Positions 11,746-28,329 of a stretch of 28,898 bases of DNA are shown here, in pieces; positions within the stretch are counted from its first letter, which is position 1, and every line of letters begins with the position of its first letter. The stretch is from Candidatus Hermodarchaeum yapensis (GTDB lineage: Archaea > Asgardarchaeota > Hermodarchaeia > Hermodarchaeales > Hermodarchaeaceae), in the NCBI GenBank assembly GCA_016840405.1, contig JAEOSK010000033.1, positions 1 through 28,898 on the forward strand, written 5' to 3'. The notes under the pieces are model-generated. The model searched no databases and was not told the DNA's origin. It saw nothing but the letters and a program-made list of their open reading frames with translations. The translations under genes were made by a program, and so were the position numbers.

Positions 11746-11878
11746 GGAATATAAACCAGATGTGCTTCGCGCCATCTTAGAGATTTAAGTCGGGGAGAAA
11801 ACTCTGATAGAGCGATGTTTAACCGTCTTTTAACGAATTCACGAAAACTATATGTGTAGTCCAACGGACGAAAAGGGC

Positions 11879-13387
11879 ATGTCCCAGCCAGCGGTGGATT
11901 CTCAAAGTAGTGGTTTTTGCCCATCCTGCCACATCAACATGGCAGAACGATATTGCCGAGAATGTGGCCAAGTCTTTTGTCTCCCTTGTTCACGGCAGGA
12001 CTTGAGTGAATTCTTCACGTGCCCAAGGTGTGGTCCAGACAATATTGAGGATCAAGAAGACGAAGTCATTTGCACAGAATGTGAGGAACCCGCCCAGCGT
12101 GCCACACGCCGCGTTTATTTATGTCCCAACTGTGGATCTGAGGAAATCACCCCAATTCACAATATGCGGCAAGACTTAGTAGGACGATTCCGCACAACCT
12201 ACTATCGACTACGAACAGGCCATGAGTTGCTGTCAGGATTTGCAGCTCGACTAAGAATTCTCCGATGGCGGGTACGTGAACTCAGAACAGCTAGTTTTCT
12301 ACATGACCCAGAGGTGGAAAAAGAACTTCTGGAATTAATGAAGTCAGAATTACCTAGCGTTCAGGAGCGAACTCTCTTTCGAGCTCGAAATGTTGTTGAA
12401 CGGCATAGAGCAAGTAAATACCGATTCATGAATCCAGAGCGATGGACAATAACAGAGTTCCCACTTCTTGCAGGCTTAATAGACGCCATCCAAGAAGATG
12501 TGTCAGATTATCAAGCCTACTGTCGCGACCTGGTCAACGGATTGGATGTCAAGCTTGCCACGATTGAAGCACGATTAACGCAAGTCGCTGAGTGGCATAA
12601 AATCTTCAACGATCACATCGAATATCTTCCCGTGTTAGAGAATGAACGGCCAGTGGCAGCCCTCCAACCTGTGAACTTGAACAAGACTGAGACGAGCGAA
12701 GGCATGGGAAATGGCATTCTCTTCGTTACGACACAGCGCCTCATCTTTCTTGGTCGGAAGGGTTTCTTTACAAAAGAGACACGTGTCGTTCACACGATAC
12801 CCTTGGGTAAAATTAGTGGTGTGACACTGCAGGGACGAATTCGACGACGTGTGCATATCGAGATCGATGAGGAAGAATTCAAAATTGGTGGAGCCTCCAA
12901 AGTTTTGGAAGCCATCCCGGATGCTATCACGCTGGCTTCAAGTTTTAATGAGCATAGCCTTGTAACAACTTCTGGTTCGCTTCGAGTGCTTAACCTGAAA
13001 GTGGATGTGTCGTCTCTCCGCGACGAGCTAGATACACTCATTAACTATGCTGTTTCGCCCGAAGAAATGGACGAAACCGGTGCTCCGGATGGTTCAAGAC
13101 CCTACCCGTATCCGGATGGATATTACCCCTATTATTCTCGAACAAGAGGGGCACACTCGGACGAGTTGGAACGTGACCCGCTATTCCAATTGGAGCAACA
13201 GAAATTCAGTATTGAATCCACAATTGAGCTCTTGAAACGTCAGTCGAAGGAAGGAAAACTGTCTGATGAGAATTTTTACAAACAGTATCGTTCCCTAACT
13301 GAGGAGCTCTTTTTGATTGAAGCAAAGATTGAGGACCTTCGTATACGTAGAAGGTATGATGAACGGTACCGCGATCAACACCGATGA
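11879..13387 (+). CDS. Multi-Zn-finger / helical / PH(GRAM/GLUE)-like / steadiness-box protein; putative ESCRT-associated adaptor
   Basis: Six CxxC pairs at the N-terminus, PH-like strands 'GILFVTTQRLIFLGRKGFF...IPLGKISGV', a PY-rich linker, and a C-terminus that aligns by eye with the steadiness box of the Vps23 in this window. Confidence 0.7.
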   Translation: MSQPAVDSQSSGFCPSCHINMAERYCRECGQVFCLPCSRQDLSEFFTCPRCGPDNIEDQEDEVICTECEEPAQRATRRVYLCPNCGSEEITPIHNMRQDLVGRFRTTYYRLRTGHELLSGFAARLRILRWRVRELRTASFLHDPEVEKELLELMKSELPSVQERTLFRARNVVERHRASKYRFMNPERWTITEFPLLAGLIDAIQEDVSDYQAYCRDLVNGLDVKLATIEARLTQVAEWHKIFNDHIEYLPVLENERPVAALQPVNLNKTETSEGMGNGILFVTTQRLIFLGRKGFFTKETRVVHTIPLGKISGVTLQGRIRRRVHIEIDEEEFKIGGASKVLEAIPDAITLASSFNEHSLVTTSGSLRVLNLKVDVSSLRDELDTLINYAVSPEEMDETGAPDGSRPYPYPDGYYPYYSRTRGAHSDELERDPLFQLEQQKFSIESTIELLKRQSKEGKLSDENFYKQYRSLTEELFLIEAKIEDLRIRRRYDERYRDQHR

Positions 13388-13400
13388 ATACCGTTAGAAC

Positions 13401-14030
13401 CTATTCCTGAACTTCTTTCTTCATGCGTTCAAGTTCTTTTCGGGTTCTTTCACGCCGTTCCTCAGATGTTTCCAGGACTTCTTCGCCTTCAGGAACAGAG
13501 GGGAGTTGCCCAGCTTCTTCCAGGGCAATCATCGTCTCAATGTCCTCAAGTTCCGCTTCTACATCGGCGTCCATTTCTTCGTCATCTAATCCGAGGCCTA
13601 GAATCTCTTCGGTGGCTTCAGCCTCCTCAATAAGGGCCTGGGTTTCGAGAATGACCTCACGAGCAATCTCAGGAGAGGCCGTTTCACGGAGATTTTGAAG
13701 TTCGGAACCAATACCCTGCAAAGCGCCAATAACTTCGGTTTCTCCTCGAGCTTGGTTGATAGCTTCGACACCACGTTCCATCAGATCAATTTCTTGTTCG
13801 ATCAGTCGAGCTTTGCGTAGATAGCGTTGACGGCGTCGGAGCTGCATCTTTGCAGCTTTTCGATCACCACGGCGTACATAGCGCGTTGCCTTGATTTTCG
13901 AGTCGCTAGCCTTTGTTTCATATTGCCGGCTACGGACTTCTAATTTATCGACAACTCGATGAATACGAGCGATTGTATCTTCTTTGGGTTCAGGCTTTTT
14001 CGGAAATAGTTTCTCCCAGAATTTTACCAT
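13401..14030 (-). CDS. ESCRT-III subunit, Vps20/32/60 (Snf7) class
   Basis: Amphipathic N-terminus (FWEKLF), 'GDRKAAKMQLRRRQRY', an acidic 'DVEAELEDIE' segment, and 'LPSVP' (MIM2-like). Confidence 0.88.
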   Translation of the reverse strand: MVKFWEKLFPKKPEPKEDTIARIHRVVDKLEVRSRQYETKASDSKIKATRYVRRGDRKAAKMQLRRRQRYLRKARLIEQEIDLMERGVEAINQARGETEVIGALQGIGSELQNLRETASPEIAREVILETQALIEEAEATEEILGLGLDDEEMDADVEAELEDIETMIALEEAGQLPSVPEGEEVLETSEERRERTRKELERMKKEVQE

Positions 14031-14033
14031 TGA

Positions 14034-14645
14034 CTAGCCCTCCTCCTTCAATCGCTGAATCTCAGATTCTAACTCTGAGACACGTTTTTCGGGTTCAGGA
14101 AGTGATGTACCGGTTTCGATCTCGATTTCAGAATCGAGTTCTTTGAGGGCATCTTTCACTTCACCATCAGTAACTTCTGTTGAGACTGCCATGCGTTCCA
14201 TTCCAGCTTCGGCAACTTCTTGGGTCATCTCGAAGTGCCGGAGGTTGCCTTCTATCTGGTCAACAAGCTGTGCAACCTCAGGAACTTTGACTTGGCTCTT
14301 CAGTCCTCCGAGTGCAGCGTTAAGTTGACCAAGAATCTTGGCGACTTCACCCATGGCTTCACTCTGGCGTAGTTGAGTTTGTAATCCTTCAATGCGTAGT
14401 CGATATGCATCTACGCTTAGGGCCCATTTCTGGAATCGCAGTTGGTGCTGCAAGTACATGCGCGTAGCATCCATATTTCCTGCGAGACGGTATTTCTTGG
14501 CCCGTTGGCGGCTTTTACTTGCCTCTTTTTCCAGCATCTTCCGTTGTAAGTCGAGCTTACGGCAAAAGACATCGAGACGGAAAATTAGCTTCTTTAAATC
14601 GGGTCCGCCGCCCAGCCAACTCATAAATCGGCGAATAGCAGACAT
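14034..14645 (-). CDS. ESCRT-III subunit, Vps2/24/46 (CHMP1-3) class
   Basis: 'GNMDATRMY', basic N-terminal and acidic C-terminal halves, and a C-terminal MIM1-like 'ELESEIQRLK'. Likely start is ATG 14645; the track gives 14675. Confidence 0.88.
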   Translation of the reverse strand: MSAIRRFMSWLGGGPDLKKLIFRLDVFCRKLDLQRKMLEKEASKSRQRAKKYRLAGNMDATRMYLQHQLRFQKWALSVDAYRLRIEGLQTQLRQSEAMGEVAKILGQLNAALGGLKSQVKVPEVAQLVDQIEGNLRHFEMTQEVAEAGMERMAVSTEVTDGEVKDALKELDSEIEIETGTSLPEPEKRVSELESEIQRLKEEG

Positions 14646-14754
14646 TGTTATTAACCTACCATTGACTCCCTTCAAATCAAGCTTATTATACTTTTGGCAT
14701 ACTCGCCTATAATTGCACGGTTTTGCGTATCGATTCGCAATAATTTCTGTATTT

Positions 14755-22601: not shown

Positions 22602-23759
22602 TTGACCAGCGCAGCCATGTTCCAACTTGCAGAAAATAAAGCCAAAGAGGCTCTGACATTAGATCAGCAAGGAAAACGGTCTGCAGCAATGTCTAAGTAC
22701 ATTGAGGCCGCGGATATCCTCGTGCGTGTTCTAAAGGTGTCAAAGAATCCGCAGTTGCGGCGAATTGCCTTGGAAAGAGCTGATCAGTATGTGGCCCGAG
22801 CAAAGACCCTTCGGAGTGGTCGATTGCCAGCTAGAGGTCCTACTCCGGATTTTGAGGGTGTTGAGCTTGAGGATCAAGAGGATAAGGAGCTGCAAGACGA
22901 CATCGAAAGCATGATTATCAAGGAAAAACCGGATGTCAAGTGGGAGGATGTAGCAAATCTGGACGAGGCAAAACAGGCACTCCGTGAGTCAGTCATTTTG
23001 CCCATGTTACGACCTGATTTATTCACGGGCGCACGACGACCCTGGAAGGGTGTCTTATTATTTGGACCTCCTGGATGCGGAAAAACGCTCATTGCCAAAG
23101 CGGTCGCGAATGAAGCGGGATGCACATTCTTCAATGCAGATGCCGCTTCGATTGTTTCAAAATGGTTGGGTGAGTCTGAGCGCTTAGTCAAGAACCTGTT
23201 TGGATCCGCGCGGAAAGAGCAACCCGCCATTGTGTTTATGGATGAAGTAGATGCCCTCACAGGTGAGCGGGGCTCAGATCAGGTGGGGGGCGAGCGCCGG
23301 TTGAAAACCCAATTCCTTATTGAAATGGATGGGATGAAGAGTCGAAAGGGCGACCACATTGTGGTGTTAGGGGCAACCAACCGTCCGTGGGACTTGGATG
23401 CAGCGTTTCGTCGTCGATTCGAACGACGGATTATGGTTCCGATGCCCGAATTTGAAGCGCGAGTGAGAATTTTTGAGATACATACGAAGGGTATTGATCT
23501 TGCTCCGGATGTGGACTTCAATTCACTTGGTGAAAAAACAAAGGGATATGCTGGTTCCGATATCGCGTTGATATGTCGTGAGGCATCGCTTCAGCCAATT
23601 CGGGAATTAGATGCTTCGGGAGCAATTCGTGATAAGGAGATTCAAGCGCGTTCTGTTCAATTATCGGATTTTCTGGAAAGTTTGAGAAATATCCGGTCAG
23701 TGGTTTCACCAGACGAGTTGGCGCGGTATCTTGAATGGGATAGTAAACATGGTTCGTAG
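22602..23759 (+). CDS. vps4: Vps4 AAA+ ATPase (MIT + AAA)
   Basis: N-terminal MIT helices, Walker A GPPGCGKT, pore loop SKWLGESE, Walker B IVFMDE, and ATNRPWDLD.AFRRRFERR. Confidence 0.95.
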   Translation: MTSAAMFQLAENKAKEALTLDQQGKRSAAMSKYIEAADILVRVLKVSKNPQLRRIALERADQYVARAKTLRSGRLPARGPTPDFEGVELEDQEDKELQDDIESMIIKEKPDVKWEDVANLDEAKQALRESVILPMLRPDLFTGARRPWKGVLLFGPPGCGKTLIAKAVANEAGCTFFNADAASIVSKWLGESERLVKNLFGSARKEQPAIVFMDEVDALTGERGSDQVGGERRLKTQFLIEMDGMKSRKGDHIVVLGATNRPWDLDAAFRRRFERRIMVPMPEFEARVRIFEIHTKGIDLAPDVDFNSLGEKTKGYAGSDIALICREASLQPIRELDASGAIRDKEIQARSVQLSDFLESLRNIRSVVSPDELARYLEWDSKHGS

Positions 23760-24498
23760 GGGATTGATTGTGTCGAAGGAGAAGGCCAGGGAGCGTTCGA
23801 AAGAAAAGGAGCGGGATGAGCTCCGTGCAGATGTGTCGCTCACGGAAGAGGACTGGTTGGACCTTCTGAAGAAAACACGGGAACATGCAGAGAGTTTAGC
23901 TGAATCAGATGAGACGGCTGTTCTCGTGATGCCTATCACTGAGGAAGAAGAAAAAAAGCTCGAGGAACTAGCACGCAAAGCTGTCGAAAAGCTGAGTCGC
24001 CGATTTGTATGGATTGCCAAACGGGGTCGGTATGGGTTCATGTTTGTGATTCCTACTTCCGAGGAGGAAAAGGACCAATGGGGGGCAGAATGGGCAGGAT
24101 TTACCATTGATTGGTGTCGAGAAATGTTAATGCACATTGTCTCAACCCGGACACTAGTGATGTTCGATCCTTTCAATGAGATCCGTCCTGATCGCCATCA
24201 AGCCGTCAAAATTATTCTTGGTGTGTTAGTAAAAGAAGAGTTGGGACGTTGGGTTGATGAAGCGGAGGGCATCATTCGCATTACTTGGAAAACTGATGAT
24301 GAATGGGCGGATGAAATCCGTCGATGGGCGTTAAAAACGGGACGAACCACGTTTACCCTCTTTAAGCTTCAGGAATACCGGAAGGATTTGGCAACGCTTC
24401 CTAAATCTGAGCTCCGTTATATTTTACAACGTTTAGTGGAAAAGAAACAGGCTAAATGGTTGGATAGCGAACGAGAAGTTGTCGAGATTCAAGTATAA
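23749..24498 (+). CDS. vps25: ESCRT-II Vps25-like winged-helix protein with a charged N-terminal extension
   Basis: 'QWGAEWAGFTIDWC', 'ITWKT.DEWADEIRRWA..TG..TFTLF.L', and 'ILQRLVEKKQA'. It overlaps the vps4 stop. GTG 23770 is an alternative start. Confidence 0.8.
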   Translation: MVRRGLIVSKEKARERSKEKERDELRADVSLTEEDWLDLLKKTREHAESLAESDETAVLVMPITEEEEKKLEELARKAVEKLSRRFVWIAKRGRYGFMFVIPTSEEEKDQWGAEWAGFTIDWCREMLMHIVSTRTLVMFDPFNEIRPDRHQAVKIILGVLVKEELGRWVDEAEGIIRITWKTDDEWADEIRRWALKTGRTTFTLFKLQEYRKDLATLPKSELRYILQRLVEKKQAKWLDSEREVVEIQV

Positions 24499-24517: not shown

Positions 24518-25252
24518 TTAATCTGAGGGATTAAGTCCGGGGAAGAAGTAACGAGTGCCGTGAACGTAGGATTTGTCGATCTTCGCCGCACCCACGGATT
24601 CTAGACTTTTGAGGGCCGCATCAGCACGTTCACGATTCCATCCTGTTTTGGTCATTAAATCTTCAAGTGTGGTATATCCAGTGCGGCTGGCCATCGAGAG
24701 AATGGCAACTTGGTCATTGGTGAGTTCACGTGGAACGAGTTCAACGATTCGGATCCCTGAGGGTAATTTCCGTATACCAGGTATCAATTTGGCATTGGCA
24801 AGATTTTGAATGGCTTTGGCTATGTTGACTTGGGACACGCTCGTTTGGCGTTGCTTATTCACTAATAGGACGATTTCAGCAAGAGTCATAATACCCCCAG
24901 TGGCATCACGACGCCGTTTGGCGATATCGAGTATTTGTAAGCCTAGTTCATCGTAGAAACGCCCCCGTCCGGTAAGTCGTTCTACAAGCCCGGGTTTCTC
25001 TTTCATGTCTTCAGAGAAGGGAATTCCGGGGAGGGTTATGCCAAGTTCATGTGCTATGGCAGCTGCTTTTTCGCTATATTCGGGAGTGACTTCCAAGACT
25101 TCTCCGTAGGTTTTTTCAAAGGAGTCGGCTTTATCCTGTAGCTGTGAGATGGCTTGAAGCATGTGTTCAAGCTCTTTGAGCATAAGCTCGACACGTTTCT
25201 TCTTGTAAGCCGCATCCATTTCCATTTGCTTTTCAATTTCCCATAGACCCAT
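24518..25252 (-). CDS. vps22: ESCRT-II Vps22/Vps36 (EAP30) family protein
   Basis: MGL.., 'FYDELGLQILDI...TGGIMTL.E', 'ELTNDQVAIL', 'GWNRERA..AL', and 'YFFPGL'. GAGGAGG RBS before ATG 25252. Confidence 0.9.
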   Translation of the reverse strand: MGLWEIEKQMEMDAAYKKKRVELMLKELEHMLQAISQLQDKADSFEKTYGEVLEVTPEYSEKAAAIAHELGITLPGIPFSEDMKEKPGLVERLTGRGRFYDELGLQILDIAKRRRDATGGIMTLAEIVLLVNKQRQTSVSQVNIAKAIQNLANAKLIPGIRKLPSGIRIVELVPRELTNDQVAILSMASRTGYTTLEDLMTKTGWNRERADAALKSLESVGAAKIDKSYVHGTRYFFPGLNPSD

Positions 25253-25266
25253 GCAGGTGTTCCTCC

Positions 25267-25560
25267 TCATATTTGTCGCATGTAATTGAGCCAAGTTTCT
25301 GCTCGCATGGCAAACCGTCGCGCTTCTAATTCCTCCACATGTTGAGATAGATTAGTTCCGTATTTTGCCCAGAAATATTCGTACCATTCTTGGGCTTCAA
25401 GGGTGACGGAATGATTCGGACCAAGCATAGCTTCCGAGAAAGCCACAACCACGTCTAAATCTTCCAAGATGTATTCAGCGTTAATGCGCAGATTAGCTTT
25501 ATTGATAGCATTCACCAACCGTTCGCGCATTTCTGCAAATGAACGCATGGGATGTGCCAT
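25267..25560 (-). CDS. Hypothetical helical protein inside the ESCRT-I/II operon
   Basis: 97 aa, tightly packed (19- and 14-nt gaps) between vps28 and vps22/36, with GAGG upstream. Confidence 0.7.
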   Translation of the reverse strand: MAHPMRSFAEMRERLVNAINKANLRINAEYILEDLDVVVAFSEAMLGPNHSVTLEAQEWYEYFWAKYGTNLSQHVEELEARRFAMRAETWLNYMRQI

Positions 25561-25579: not shown

Positions 25580-26227
25580 CTATTCATCGACCGCCATTTC
25601 TCGGAGCCGGCGCTTGAAGTCATTCAACCATCGGACGGTCTGGAATTCTAATTGTTTGGCCTCCTCTGGAGTGAGAGTATCGTTGGGATCTCGTTGTTGA
25701 AGTTGATTGCGCCAATCTTTCATTGCCACAAGGATCCAATAATCGGGAGGGAAGTTTGGATACTTAGTCAAGAGAATGATGGCATCATCAAGAAGAGGTA
25801 CAATAAGGCTCATCCGAGCCACATCACCGAGTTTGGCGATATCGATTAATGTGATAAGATCGGAGACAATGTCGGCTGTTTTAGCAGCCATTCTGGCGGA
25901 AGTCTGAGCTACTAATTCAACCTTTTGTTCACCTTCGGGAGCACGCTCCACGATTTGGAGCTTTTTAACAGCAGTAGGAAACCGTTCAGCAATTTTTTCT
26001 TCGTCGACAAACGTTTCCCAGCTTTCACCTTCAGCTTCAAGTAACTGTCGCGCTTTGACCGTGTCGCTGACAAGAGACTTTAGCTGACGCTTATACAAGG
26101 CCGGTTGAATATCTCCATCCTCAAATTTTTCTGCAATGCTGTCGAGTGTGGCAATCGTTCCAAAAACTTCAGCTTCTAGTTCAACGACCTTTGCTTTTTT
26201 TGGTCGTTTTCGCTCGCGTACTGCCAT
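25580..26227 (-). CDS. vps28: ESCRT-I Vps28
   Basis: N-terminal 'AEVFGTIATLDSIAEKFEDGDI...Y' and C-terminal bundle 'ITLIDIAKLG...PLL.D...W...L...D.LT.EEAKQL.F'. GAGGAG RBS. Confidence 0.9.
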   Translation of the reverse strand: MAVRERKRPKKAKVVELEAEVFGTIATLDSIAEKFEDGDIQPALYKRQLKSLVSDTVKARQLLEAEGESWETFVDEEKIAERFPTAVKKLQIVERAPEGEQKVELVAQTSARMAAKTADIVSDLITLIDIAKLGDVARMSLIVPLLDDAIILLTKYPNFPPDYWILVAMKDWRNQLQQRDPNDTLTPEEAKQLEFQTVRWLNDFKRRLREMAVDE

Positions 26228-26247
26228 TGAAATCTCCTCAGTCTGGA

Positions 26248-27015
26248 CTATTTGTATTTCTCGAGAGCCTTGTCAATTTGATAGAGCCGTCGTTTATACC
26301 GTTTGTATAACTTGGTGTACTCGGTTGAATTAATCTCAGCAGAGTCAAATTTCTGCTCAAGATTCTGTAATAAATCTTCAATTGCCAGTTTTTCGCTTTC
26401 TAGCTCTAACCGTTCCCGTTCCTTTGCATCCGTTGGCATGATTAGGGCATCAAGCTCTTCTTCGTCCGTTACTTCACCGGCGGTGATAGAGCCAGTGTCA
26501 ATCTGAGCAGCCATTCGAGCAATACGTTCATCGCGATCCTGAACTTTCTTTGACAATCTCGCGACTTCACGTTCCAACTGTTGATATCGCTGTTGGAGAA
26601 CTTCCTCCTCCTGAGGCATCTTCACCTTTGGCGCCTCGCGTGTCTTATCAGCCACAGGAGGTTCTCGGGCAAAAAGCCCCTTGATACTATTTACCACTTG
26701 GTAGACATGATAGTGAGGTTGCCACTGGGTGACGATGCGTAGATGAATAGCTCCTGACTCTGAATCAACTCGCGGATGCTTTGTAGGCATCAACATTCGA
26801 GCCACAGGTGGTTGAGCTGGAAAGTTTGGAGGCACAATAATCTCGACAAGGAACTCATCTTTACTTCGTGGTCCACCTTTGATTTTTCCTCTCCATCGGC
26901 GAAGATTCTGACCAACTGGAGTAAAGGTAGGTGCTCGCCGGTACATCAATTGTGCTTCACGAGCAATCGATAATTCTTGTTGACTTCGCATAGCCTGTGC
27001 CATAGTATACACCAT
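26248..27015 (-). CDS. vps23: ESCRT-I Vps23/TSG101-like protein (UEV + coiled coil + steadiness box)
   Basis: E2-like fold 'P.NFP.QPP...HPRVD..SGAIHL...W.P' with no catalytic Cys, a central coiled coil, and a C-terminal 'AIEDLL..L......I....Y.K'. Confidence 0.88.
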   Translation of the reverse strand: MVYTMAQAMRSQQELSIAREAQLMYRRAPTFTPVGQNLRRWRGKIKGGPRSKDEFLVEIIVPPNFPAQPPVARMLMPTKHPRVDSESGAIHLRIVTQWQPHYHVYQVVNSIKGLFAREPPVADKTREAPKVKMPQEEEVLQQRYQQLEREVARLSKKVQDRDERIARMAAQIDTGSITAGEVTDEEELDALIMPTDAKERERLELESEKLAIEDLLQNLEQKFDSAEINSTEYTKLYKRYKRRLYQIDKALEKYK

Positions 27016-27087: not shown

Positions 27088-27627
27088 TCATGTTGAAGTA
27101 GCCTTAGTTTTTCGCTTGGGGGCAACTTTTTCTTTCGTTGGAGTGCTTTCAACCGCCTGTTTAACCGTCACAAGGATATTGCTTTGGAGTTCTCGAAGAA
27201 ATTCTTCAAATCGTGTTTCAAACAAAGTAATCATTTCTTCTATCCGTTGAACGGCCTGTGTAAGAGTTGGTAAAAGCTCTTTTTGCAATTCAGCAAGAGA
27301 GGCATCCGATGTCTTGGCTGGTTTTTGTTTAGCTATTTTGTCCATCGATTTTTCTAAGGCTTCAAATTGGGAGGATAGAACACCCAGCCGTTCAACTGAA
27401 GATTCTGAAGCAATAGTGTCGTCAGCAACTAGCTTTTGTAGCGTTTTTACCTCACGTAGAAGTGCGCGAATATTAGCCTCCATTTTCAGATTCATCCGTC
27501 CCAGATCTGCATCTAATAAATTCAAGCCTTTCACAATTCGTTTAAGGGACTCAACGGTTGGAACTAGCCCTTTTGGTGTTTTAATGGCTTCAATTTCAAT
27601 AGCGTATTTAGGTGGTTCAGAGGACAC
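27088..27627 (-). CDS. Coiled-coil hypothetical protein upstream of vps23
   Basis: 179 aa with a heptad pattern and a basic low-complexity tail; non-ATG start. Confidence 0.7.
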   Translation of the reverse strand: MSSEPPKYAIEIEAIKTPKGLVPTVESLKRIVKGLNLLDADLGRMNLKMEANIRALLREVKTLQKLVADDTIASESSVERLGVLSSQFEALEKSMDKIAKQKPAKTSDASLAELQKELLPTLTQAVQRIEEMITLFETRFEEFLRELQSNILVTVKQAVESTPTKEKVAPKRKTKATST

Positions 27628-27828: not shown

Positions 27829-28077
27829 ATGACACAACCACCAGAGCGGTTTGTAATTCCATCGGTGACCGAAATCGGTCAATGGGATTGGACCGCGACT
27901 GCTAAATGTGTCGTCTGCGGCCTTCTTGTCCGCGAAGGACAACAATTAGTCTATTGTCCTAAGTGTGGCAACCCTGCCCATTATGCACATCTTGCAGAAT
28001 GGGTGAAAGTCAAAGGAACCTGCCCTATCTGTCGGAACCGTATAAACCTACGAAGGTTGAAACCGGTTAGAAAATAA
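27829..28077 (+). CDS. Stand-alone RING-finger protein (putative E3 ligase)
   Basis: CVVC-x11-CPKC-x3-HxxH-x3-W-x6-CPICR. Confidence 0.85.
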   Translation: MTQPPERFVIPSVTEIGQWDWTATAKCVVCGLLVREGQQLVYCPKCGNPAHYAHLAEWVKVKGTCPICRNRINLRRLKPVRK

Positions 28078-28092
28078 TCGGATGGTGAAAAT

Positions 28093-28329
28093 ATGCGAAT
28101 TGAAGTCGTTCCAGCGATTGGTGGTAGTGATCCAATTGCACTCGAAGTGGAGCCAAACACGACTATTGGAGAAGTCCGAAATCGCGTTGCACAAATGCGC
28201 CGTATACCGCCCAACATTGTCATTCTAGCATACCGCGGTGCACAACTGACCGATGAACAGACCGTCAAGAGTGTTGGCATCACCCCCCATGACAAGCTGT
28301 ACTTAATTACCCGCACCGAGGGCGGCTAG
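28093..28329 (+). CDS. Ubiquitin-like modifier
   Basis: 78-aa beta-grasp pattern (LEVEP.TTI..V, L.YRG.QL.D..T....GI) ending in TRTEGG*. GGTGA RBS. Confidence 0.93.
   Translation: MRIEVVPAIGGSDPIALEVEPNTTIGEVRNRVAQMRRIPPNIVILAYRGAQLTDEQTVKSVGITPHDKLYLITRTEGG

Follow-up and report, generated by a model that had tools for sequence, protein, structure and literature searches.

The gene at positions 11879-13387 (+) of contig JAEOSK010000033.1 from Candidatus Hermodarchaeum yapensis is, by homology, the local orthologue of Znr_CC_PH_SB (asCOG cog.011556), a protein family specific to Asgard archaea. The window analyzed here is the whole stretch of 28,898 nucleotides (positions 1 to 28,898 of the contig; assembly GCA_016840405.1). 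The encoded protein combines an N-terminal zinc module, a helical bundle, a PH domain and a C-terminal steadiness-box (SB) hairpin of the Vps23 type. We consider it probable (roughly 0.7) that it acts as a membrane adaptor of the endosomal sorting complex ESCRT-I, docking through the SB and binding membrane through the PH domain. An earlier note on this DNA had proposed an ESCRT-I or ESCRT-0-like adaptor. Its ESCRT-I part stands, backed by the likeness of the SB to the Vps23 core and by synteny in 14 of 14 loci; its FYVE/ESCRT-0 part does not, and the idea is not new, being the published view of the family (Makarova 2024, mBio 15:e00335-24, PMC10936438).

Gene and domain architecture

Translation of the window gives a stop-free open frame of 502 amino acids plus a stop codon at 11879-13387 (+). 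A second ATG lies upstream at 11852, but the ATG at 11879 is the favoured start because the orthologues all begin at MSQPAVD. GILFVTTQRLIF begins at residue 279 (nucleotide 12713), the C-terminal stretch LEQQKF... begins at residue 438 (nucleotide 13190), and YCRECGQVFCLPCS, RRVYLCPNC and PYPYPDGYYPYY are each found in the translation; every sequence feature listed in the earlier note is present at its position. An AlphaFold2 (AF2) model of the protein was built with 16 orthologues as input (mean predicted local distance difference test [pLDDT], 81.7; predicted template modelling score, 0.62). The model places a beta-rich zinc module at residues 1-92, helices at 93-245, a seven-stranded sandwich with a helix cap at 258-354, helices at 356-392, disorder at 399-430, and a helical hairpin at 434-500. 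The domains read earlier from the sequence, namely, a zinc module, a PH domain of the GRAM/GLUE/bacterial-PH type and a Vps23-type SB, were borne out by Pfam, AF2, the family profile and VIA-align.

The SB hairpin (residues 434-500; 13178..13378, +) consists of AF2 helices 434-457 and 463-500. A profile of the family was searched against all PDB sequences and also against 1.84 billion cluster representatives. In the hairpin region, the only significant PDB matches were three ESCRT-I core constructs of yeast Vps23 (Stp22), aligned through both helices (2p22_A, E 5.1e-6; 2caz_A, E 2.4e-5; 2f66_A, E 4.3e-5). The profile also matches the SB regions of other Asgard proteins with a weak Vps23_core signal, and 5 of 22 family members give a Pfam Vps23_core match. 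A gapless alignment of the C-terminus with the Vps23 encoded in the window, reported previously, proved to be the best diagonal between the two proteins; the likeness shows up in ungapped scoring and in profile searches only. Its 44 residues hold 10 identities and 24 positives and score 54 with BLOSUM62, which is ~5 standard deviations above the best diagonals of 200 shuffles of Vps23 (25.5 ± 5.7; maximum, 46). Judged from these comparisons of sequence, the C-terminal hairpin is homologous to the Vps23 core.

The PH domain (residues 256-354; 12644..12940, +) is of the GRAM/GLUE/bacterial-PH type with a conserved basic cluster. Pfam bPH_3 matches residues 276-340 above its cutoff (E 1.4e-5; 25.9 bits versus 23), and VIA-align of the model returned PH-fold matches over residues 245-360 at Z 10.5-13.1. 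The best of these is the GRAM-PH domain of MTMR2 (Z 13.1; root-mean-square deviation [rmsd], 2.6; 107 aligned residues); others are Lam6 (Z 11.8), the EAP45/Vps36 GLUE domain 2hth_B (Z 11.4; rmsd, 3.4; 105 aligned residues), and the bacterial PH domains 3hsa and 3dcx (Z about 10.8). The domain type had thus been called correctly, with GLUE not singled out by the fold. In a phylum-wide alignment, positions R287, K299, R320, R322, R323, and R324 are each Lys or Arg in no fewer than 73% of sequences. Such a cluster is what would be expected of an anionic-ligand site and is not proof of lipid binding.

The N-terminal zinc module (residues 14-87; 11918..12139, +) contains six CxxC pairs (C14/17, C26/29, C34/37, C48/51, C65/68, and C82/85) plus S87. 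Neither S87 nor any of the 12 cysteines varies among 25 phylum-wide sequences that are otherwise ~30% identical, and the invariance of the cysteines argues for three Cys4 zinc sites. The helical bundle, or coiled-coil (CC) part (residues 93-245; 12155..12613, +), is formed by three long AF2 helices (93-137, 144-175, and 191-245; pLDDT about 85-97). The bundle residues R136 and E147 do not vary across the phylum, and F140 and W189 hardly do. Foldseek with the whole model placed RhoGEF DH-PH tandems on top, but at an rmsd of ~18-24 Å and TM scores of ≤0.25. VIA-align fits the PH part alone, and its rows spanning residues 94-360 have rmsd values of 11-14 Å; a DH domain was therefore rejected, and these matches are read as helices followed by a PH domain. 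Two post-PH helices (residues 356-392; 12944..13054, +; AF2 helices 356-372 and 378-392) carry an invariant F356 and a conserved R369. Between them and the SB lies the disordered Pro/Tyr-rich linker RPYPYPDGYYPYY (residues 393-433; 13055..13177, +; pLDDT <50 at 399-430), found where it had been described, before the SB. Its length varies across the family from 29 to 467 residues.

The published family, its distribution and synteny

Znr_CC_PH_SB (also written Znr_PH_CC_SB) was described by Makarova 2024 as combining three Zn ribbons with a PH domain, a coiled coil and an SB. It was reported as absent from eukaryotes and probably ancestral in Asgard archaea, and was called "a likely ESCRT-I component," with a PH domain that "is expected to be membrane associated." A 2023 bioRxiv preprint used cog.011556 as a "Steadiness/Vps23 box" asCOG. 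The gene in the window encodes three predicted Zn sites, a CC region, a PH domain and a C-terminal SB and lies in an ESCRT neighbourhood; it shares with the published family the domain order, the restriction to Asgard archaea, the neighbourhood and the proposed role. The Lokiarchaeum GC14_75 member, tabulated by Makarova 2024 as one gene away from Vps20, is about 650 amino acids long versus 502 here, owing to the short linker of the latter, and nothing essential differs. A second published member, ThorAB25_08990, is named "SB" in the sequence file of Hatano 2022 (Nat Commun 13:3398, PMC9192718). A 36-residue stretch of it is 67-83% identical to homologues from a family of genomes (f6) that holds close relatives of Thorarchaeota AB_25, and these homologues match the protein studied here end to end over residues 2-498 (E 1e-35 to 1e-47). 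Through this indirect link, ThorAB25_08990 belongs to the same family, and its branch shares only about 25% identity with our protein.

Close homologues (n = 36; 50-100% identity) are labelled Thorarchaeota, Hermodarchaeia or Promethearchaeota. With a cutoff of E ≤ 1e-3, the family profile retrieved 145 cluster representatives, of which 89 also pass E ≤ 1e-10; most are full length (480-900 amino acids). In a domain tally of 180 collected proteins, Zn-CC-PH-SB is the commonest architecture. Members were found in 192 of the 301 genomes of the phylum and in 69 of its 90 high-quality genomes. In four orthologues from the genus of the window (L003, L004, L008, and L010), one TAG stands inside the profile match; the copies are 487-489 amino acids long, and the TAG is the gene's own stop, with the match running past it and no recoding signal.

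Synteny was surveyed at 14 loci from at least eight other families, which share just 21-27% identity. All 14 have an ESCRT-III gene no more than about 3 kb from the homologue, usually adjacent and convergent, and in many Vps4, Vps25 and Vps22 are also alongside. The linkage of homologues to ESCRT loci, on which the earlier note had staked its proposal, therefore extends well beyond this genome. One genus, g27, has at the corresponding locus position a gene that keeps Zn-CC-PH but carries, in place of the SB, a C-terminal EAP30/Vps22 winged-helix core (PF04157, E 1.8e-11). This fusion was seen in two genomes (L036:9401-11206 [+], G053:C138; L045:9016-10842 [+], G044:C95), and a third contig stops too soon to tell. 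The fused gene is convergent on the same ESCRT-III gene and is Vps36-like in its order of domains, with a separate Vps22 beside it; its PH region touches the Pfam Vps36 GLUE model below cutoff (E 1.8e-4). Read as a Rosetta stone, the Zn-CC-PH-EAP30 fusion supports a role at the ESCRT-I/II junction. The Pfam GLUE model matches 1 of the 22 family members, a rare fusion variant, and the protein in the window has no EAP30 region. Makarova 2024 describes cog.002441 as two winged helices with an SB and three Zn ribbons.

Proposed mechanism and alternative readings

From the architecture, conservation and synteny given above, we infer the following mechanism. The C-terminal hairpin would plug into the steadiness-box headpiece of Vps23 and Vps28, taking the place held by Vps37 in eukaryotes; where a lineage has an SB-Vps22 fusion, that fusion would be its docking site instead. 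Candidate docking partners in the window are the local Vps28 and UEV-Vps23 (25580..27015). The PH domain would hold the complex on an anionic membrane surface via R287, K299, and R320-R324, and the acidic, B-box/RING-like zinc module and the helical bundle may associate with another partner, be it ubiquitin, an ESCRT subunit or the protein itself. The adaptor would in this way supply in trans the membrane binding that the Vps36 GLUE domain gives in eukaryotes. Hatano 2022 tested a "steadiness box protein" of Loki (called freestanding there) and of Thor (ThorAB25_08990) by yeast two-hybrid; for both the signals point to possible Vps28 binding, and the Loki one was reported to bind Vps22.

Two eukaryotic systems offer comparisons. 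With Vps23/TSG101 and Vps37 (PDB 2p22, 2caz, and 2f66), the protein shares a hairpin homologous to the Vps23 core over both helices, but it is without a UEV domain, a proline-rich region or a stalk helix, and its Zn, helical and PH domains are found in no eukaryotic ESCRT-I subunit. Vps37 itself was not matched by the family profile among PDB sequences. With the GLUE domain of Vps36/EAP45 (PDB 2cay and 2hth), it shares a PH fold of the same broad class; yeast Vps36 likewise pairs PH with zinc fingers, and the same membrane docking at the ESCRT-I/II junction is proposed for both. Unlike Vps36, it ends in an SB rather than EAP30 winged helices, its zinc module is N-terminal rather than inserted in the PH domain, and its PH domain is nearer to the myotubularin GRAM-PH domain (Z 13.1) than to EAP45 GLUE (Z 11.4).

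The distribution of Vps28 bears on this mechanism. The adaptor and Vps28 occur together in several families of genomes (f1, 16/18 versus 17/18 genomes; f9, 64/68 versus 67/68; also f18, f15, and f20), but the adaptor family is not strictly tied to Vps28. Among the genomes searched, Vps28 is present without the adaptor in f4 (adaptor 0/29, Vps28 29/29), f21 (0/21, 20/21), and f13 (0/11, 9/11), and in f6 the adaptor is found in 72 of 76 genomes versus 6 of 76 with a Pfam-detectable Vps28. The mismatched counts weigh against this mechanism, or at least against an obligate ESCRT-I subunit, as do three further points. Pfam Vps23_core on the 502-residue protein falls under the gathering threshold (E 6e-4; 20.1 versus 26.8 bits). 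A stalk helix into the hairpin, as in Vps23, Vps37 and Mvb12, is absent from the AF2 model, in which the disordered residues 399-430 precede the SB. Odin Vps23 and Vps28 were found to assemble by themselves into a 2:1 trimer, no third protein being needed (Hatano 2022). The f6 pattern is consistent with the SB-Vps22 fusion (cog.002769) of Makarova 2024, and a weak Vps28-N-like stretch lies beside Vps22 at two f6 loci (L041 and L043).

The Vps28 mismatch, the missing stalk helix and the Odin trimer keep alive one rival, which we rate as unlikely. Here the protein would follow a CdvA-like route: as an anchor on the membrane, it would recruit ESCRT-III or ESCRT-II directly and make no use of Vps23 and Vps28, with the PH domain equivalent to the membrane-binding part of CdvA and the hairpin to a CdvA-like coiled coil. 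The constant neighbour of the family is indeed an ESCRT-III gene, not Vps23 or Vps28; in f6 the adaptor is present and most genomes give no Pfam Vps28 match, and in several Vps28-bearing families no adaptor was found. One family member matches Pfam CdvA at E 0.0098 and another SB protein at E 4e-4, a relation between the SB and the CdvA hairpin is drawn both in Makarova 2024 and in the 2023 bioRxiv preprint, and the reported interaction of the Loki SB protein with Vps22 would also fit. However, the significant solved-structure matches of the profile in the hairpin are to the Vps23 core only, the protein itself has no Pfam CdvA match at E ≤ 10, and the Vps28-N-like stretches at L041 and L043 mean that an SB partner may exist even in f6.

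The zinc module bears on the remaining functional alternatives. The spacing of its first four pairs, C-x2-C-x8-C-x2-C-x4-C-x2-C-x10-C-x2-C, is B-box-like. Pfam zf-B_box matches 9 of 22 family members and an ANCHR-like B-box 3 of 22, all under the gathering cutoff, whereas FYVE matches 0 of 22 at E ≤ 0.01. Searched against PDB sequences, the family profile gave weak matches to RING fingers (RNF4, E 1.6e-5; COP1, E 1.7e-3; also TRIM31), with FYVE structures trailing at E 0.05-1.5. A separate model of residues 1-105 (pLDDT 80.9) was used for structure searches. VIA-align of the module against 48,161 chains returned a top 50 made up nearly entirely of RING, B-box, U-box and ZZ structures, including TRIM B-box-coiled-coil entries, at Z ≤ 4.7; Foldseek with the isolated module gave no match at E ≤ 1e-3, the best being the PriA and MetRS zinc inserts (E 0.07-0.2). 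Weak as they are, these matches suggest that the first Zn sites are B-box/RING-like rather than plain ribbons, and the module as a whole looks B-box/RING-like, though unproven, rather than FYVE.

Taken further, the module could have a genuine B-box/RING cross-brace into which a ribbon is inserted, and the protein could serve as a TRIM-like (B-box plus coiled coil) reader of ubiquitin or E2~Ub, and Zn-CC-PH might even be the source of the Vps36 GLUE region. We regard this as quite unlikely; if true, ubiquitin signalling, PH membrane binding and SB docking on ESCRT-I would be joined in one chain. It is very unlikely that the protein has a ubiquitin-system role in which the N-terminal zinc module is a functional RING/B-box that binds E2 or ubiquitin and makes it a TRIM-like ligase or a ubiquitin receptor on ESCRT-I. 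The RING and B-box matches from profile, Pfam and structure searches would agree with such a role, as would the legend of Supplementary Fig. 8 in Hatano 2022, which names RING, CC, PH and 23-SB among the domains shown for selected Asgard ESCRT-I-like proteins, and a reported ubiquitination of an Asgard Vps23 SB. The low structural Z scores, the empty Foldseek result and the subthreshold Pfam B-box scores speak against it, and the window already holds a dedicated RING E3 (27829-28077) and ubiquitin (28093-28329). The family is also abundant in f6, with its AB_25 relatives, while Thorarchaeota were reported to be without true ubiquitin (Hatano 2022).

The proposal of an ESCRT-0-like adaptor, in which a FYVE finger would bind phosphatidylinositol 3-phosphate and a PTAP-like linker would recruit the Vps23 UEV domain as in Vps27/Hrs, is highly improbable and was rejected; by sequence, it is largely refuted. 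In its favour are a superficial likeness of CRECGQVFCLPCS to the FYVE core, a Pfam FYVE hit on the 502-residue protein (E 0.011, far under cutoff) and the Pro-rich character of the linker. The WxxD, RRHHCR and RVC motifs of the lipid pocket are, however, absent from the 502-residue sequence, which reads AERYCRECG with no basic RRHH run; the loss of the RRHH pocket had been seen correctly in the earlier note, even as it entertained the FYVE reading. The family-wide FYVE and B-box counts and the rank of FYVE structures behind RING point the same way. The family linkers show no enrichment of P[ST]xP motifs (25 observed versus 20.5 expected) and none occurs in the 502-residue protein, so the idea that the linker holds a PTAP-like motif for UEV binding was rejected as well. 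Lastly, a generic coiled coil or SHOCT-like tail next to ESCRT-III by chance, a concern raised with the original proposal and in keeping with the Lys/Glu-rich hairpin and with a composition-adjusted BLASTP search that reported nothing against the local Vps23 (best E 12), has next to no chance of being right and is refuted by the PDB matches specific to the Vps23 core and by synteny in 14 of 14 loci across families of 21-27% identity, SHOCT (PF09851) itself giving no Pfam match at E ≤ 10.

The ESCRT locus of the window

The putative ESCRT-I adaptor gene stops at 13387 and is convergent with an ESCRT-III gene of the Snf7 family (13401-14030, -; Pfam Snf7 E 2.9e-17) across the 13-nucleotide gap noted earlier. 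A second ESCRT-III gene of the Snf7 family follows (14034..14675, -; Pfam Snf7 E 7.6e-17). Farther along are Vps4 (22602-23759), Vps25 (23731-24498), and EAP30/Vps22 (24518-25294), the last without any PH/GLUE part, in agreement with the earlier reading. Vps28 (25580-26227, -; Pfam VPS28 E 1.4e-13) and UEV-Vps23 (26248-27015, -; UQ_con E 2.7e-15 and Vps23_core E 3.9e-5) each have a steadiness-box hairpin. A small RING E3 (+; Prok-RING_1/zf-RING_2, above cutoff) and ubiquitin (+; PF00240, E 5.9e-12) adjoin the ESCRT-I genes in this genome, whose close relatives are labelled Thorarchaeota. Unlike Thorarchaeota AB_25, the genome has a separate full Vps28, UEV-Vps23, RING E3 and ubiquitin in one locus.

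Two further open reading frames lie among these genes. One of 97 amino acids (25267-25560, -) is located between Vps28 and Vps22; it has no Pfam match at E ≤ 1 and no likeness to the local Vps28. In Heimdallarchaeota AB_125, the same position between Vps28 and Vps22 is occupied by a separate "Vps28 C-terminal region" gene. The other encodes a predicted coiled coil of 179 amino acids (27088-27627, -), on the strand of UEV-Vps23 and directly upstream of it; it gives weak coiled-coil Pfam noise only and could be an ESCRT-I stalk partner.

One contig thus carries ubiquitin, a RING E3, UEV-Vps23, Vps28, Vps22, Vps25, Vps4, two ESCRT-III genes and the adaptor, an unusually complete set. The window adds a well-supported orthologue in this locus rather than a new idea, the question of how ESCRT is tied to the membrane having already been posed in the literature for Znr_CC_PH_SB itself. 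Asgard ESCRT is the best available model for the origin of eukaryotic membrane sorting. Because Asgard Vps22 does not carry the GLUE domain known from Vps36, and a Vps37 has not been found, the Znr_CC_PH_SB family is the leading candidate for tying the archaeal ESCRT-I/II machinery to the membrane.

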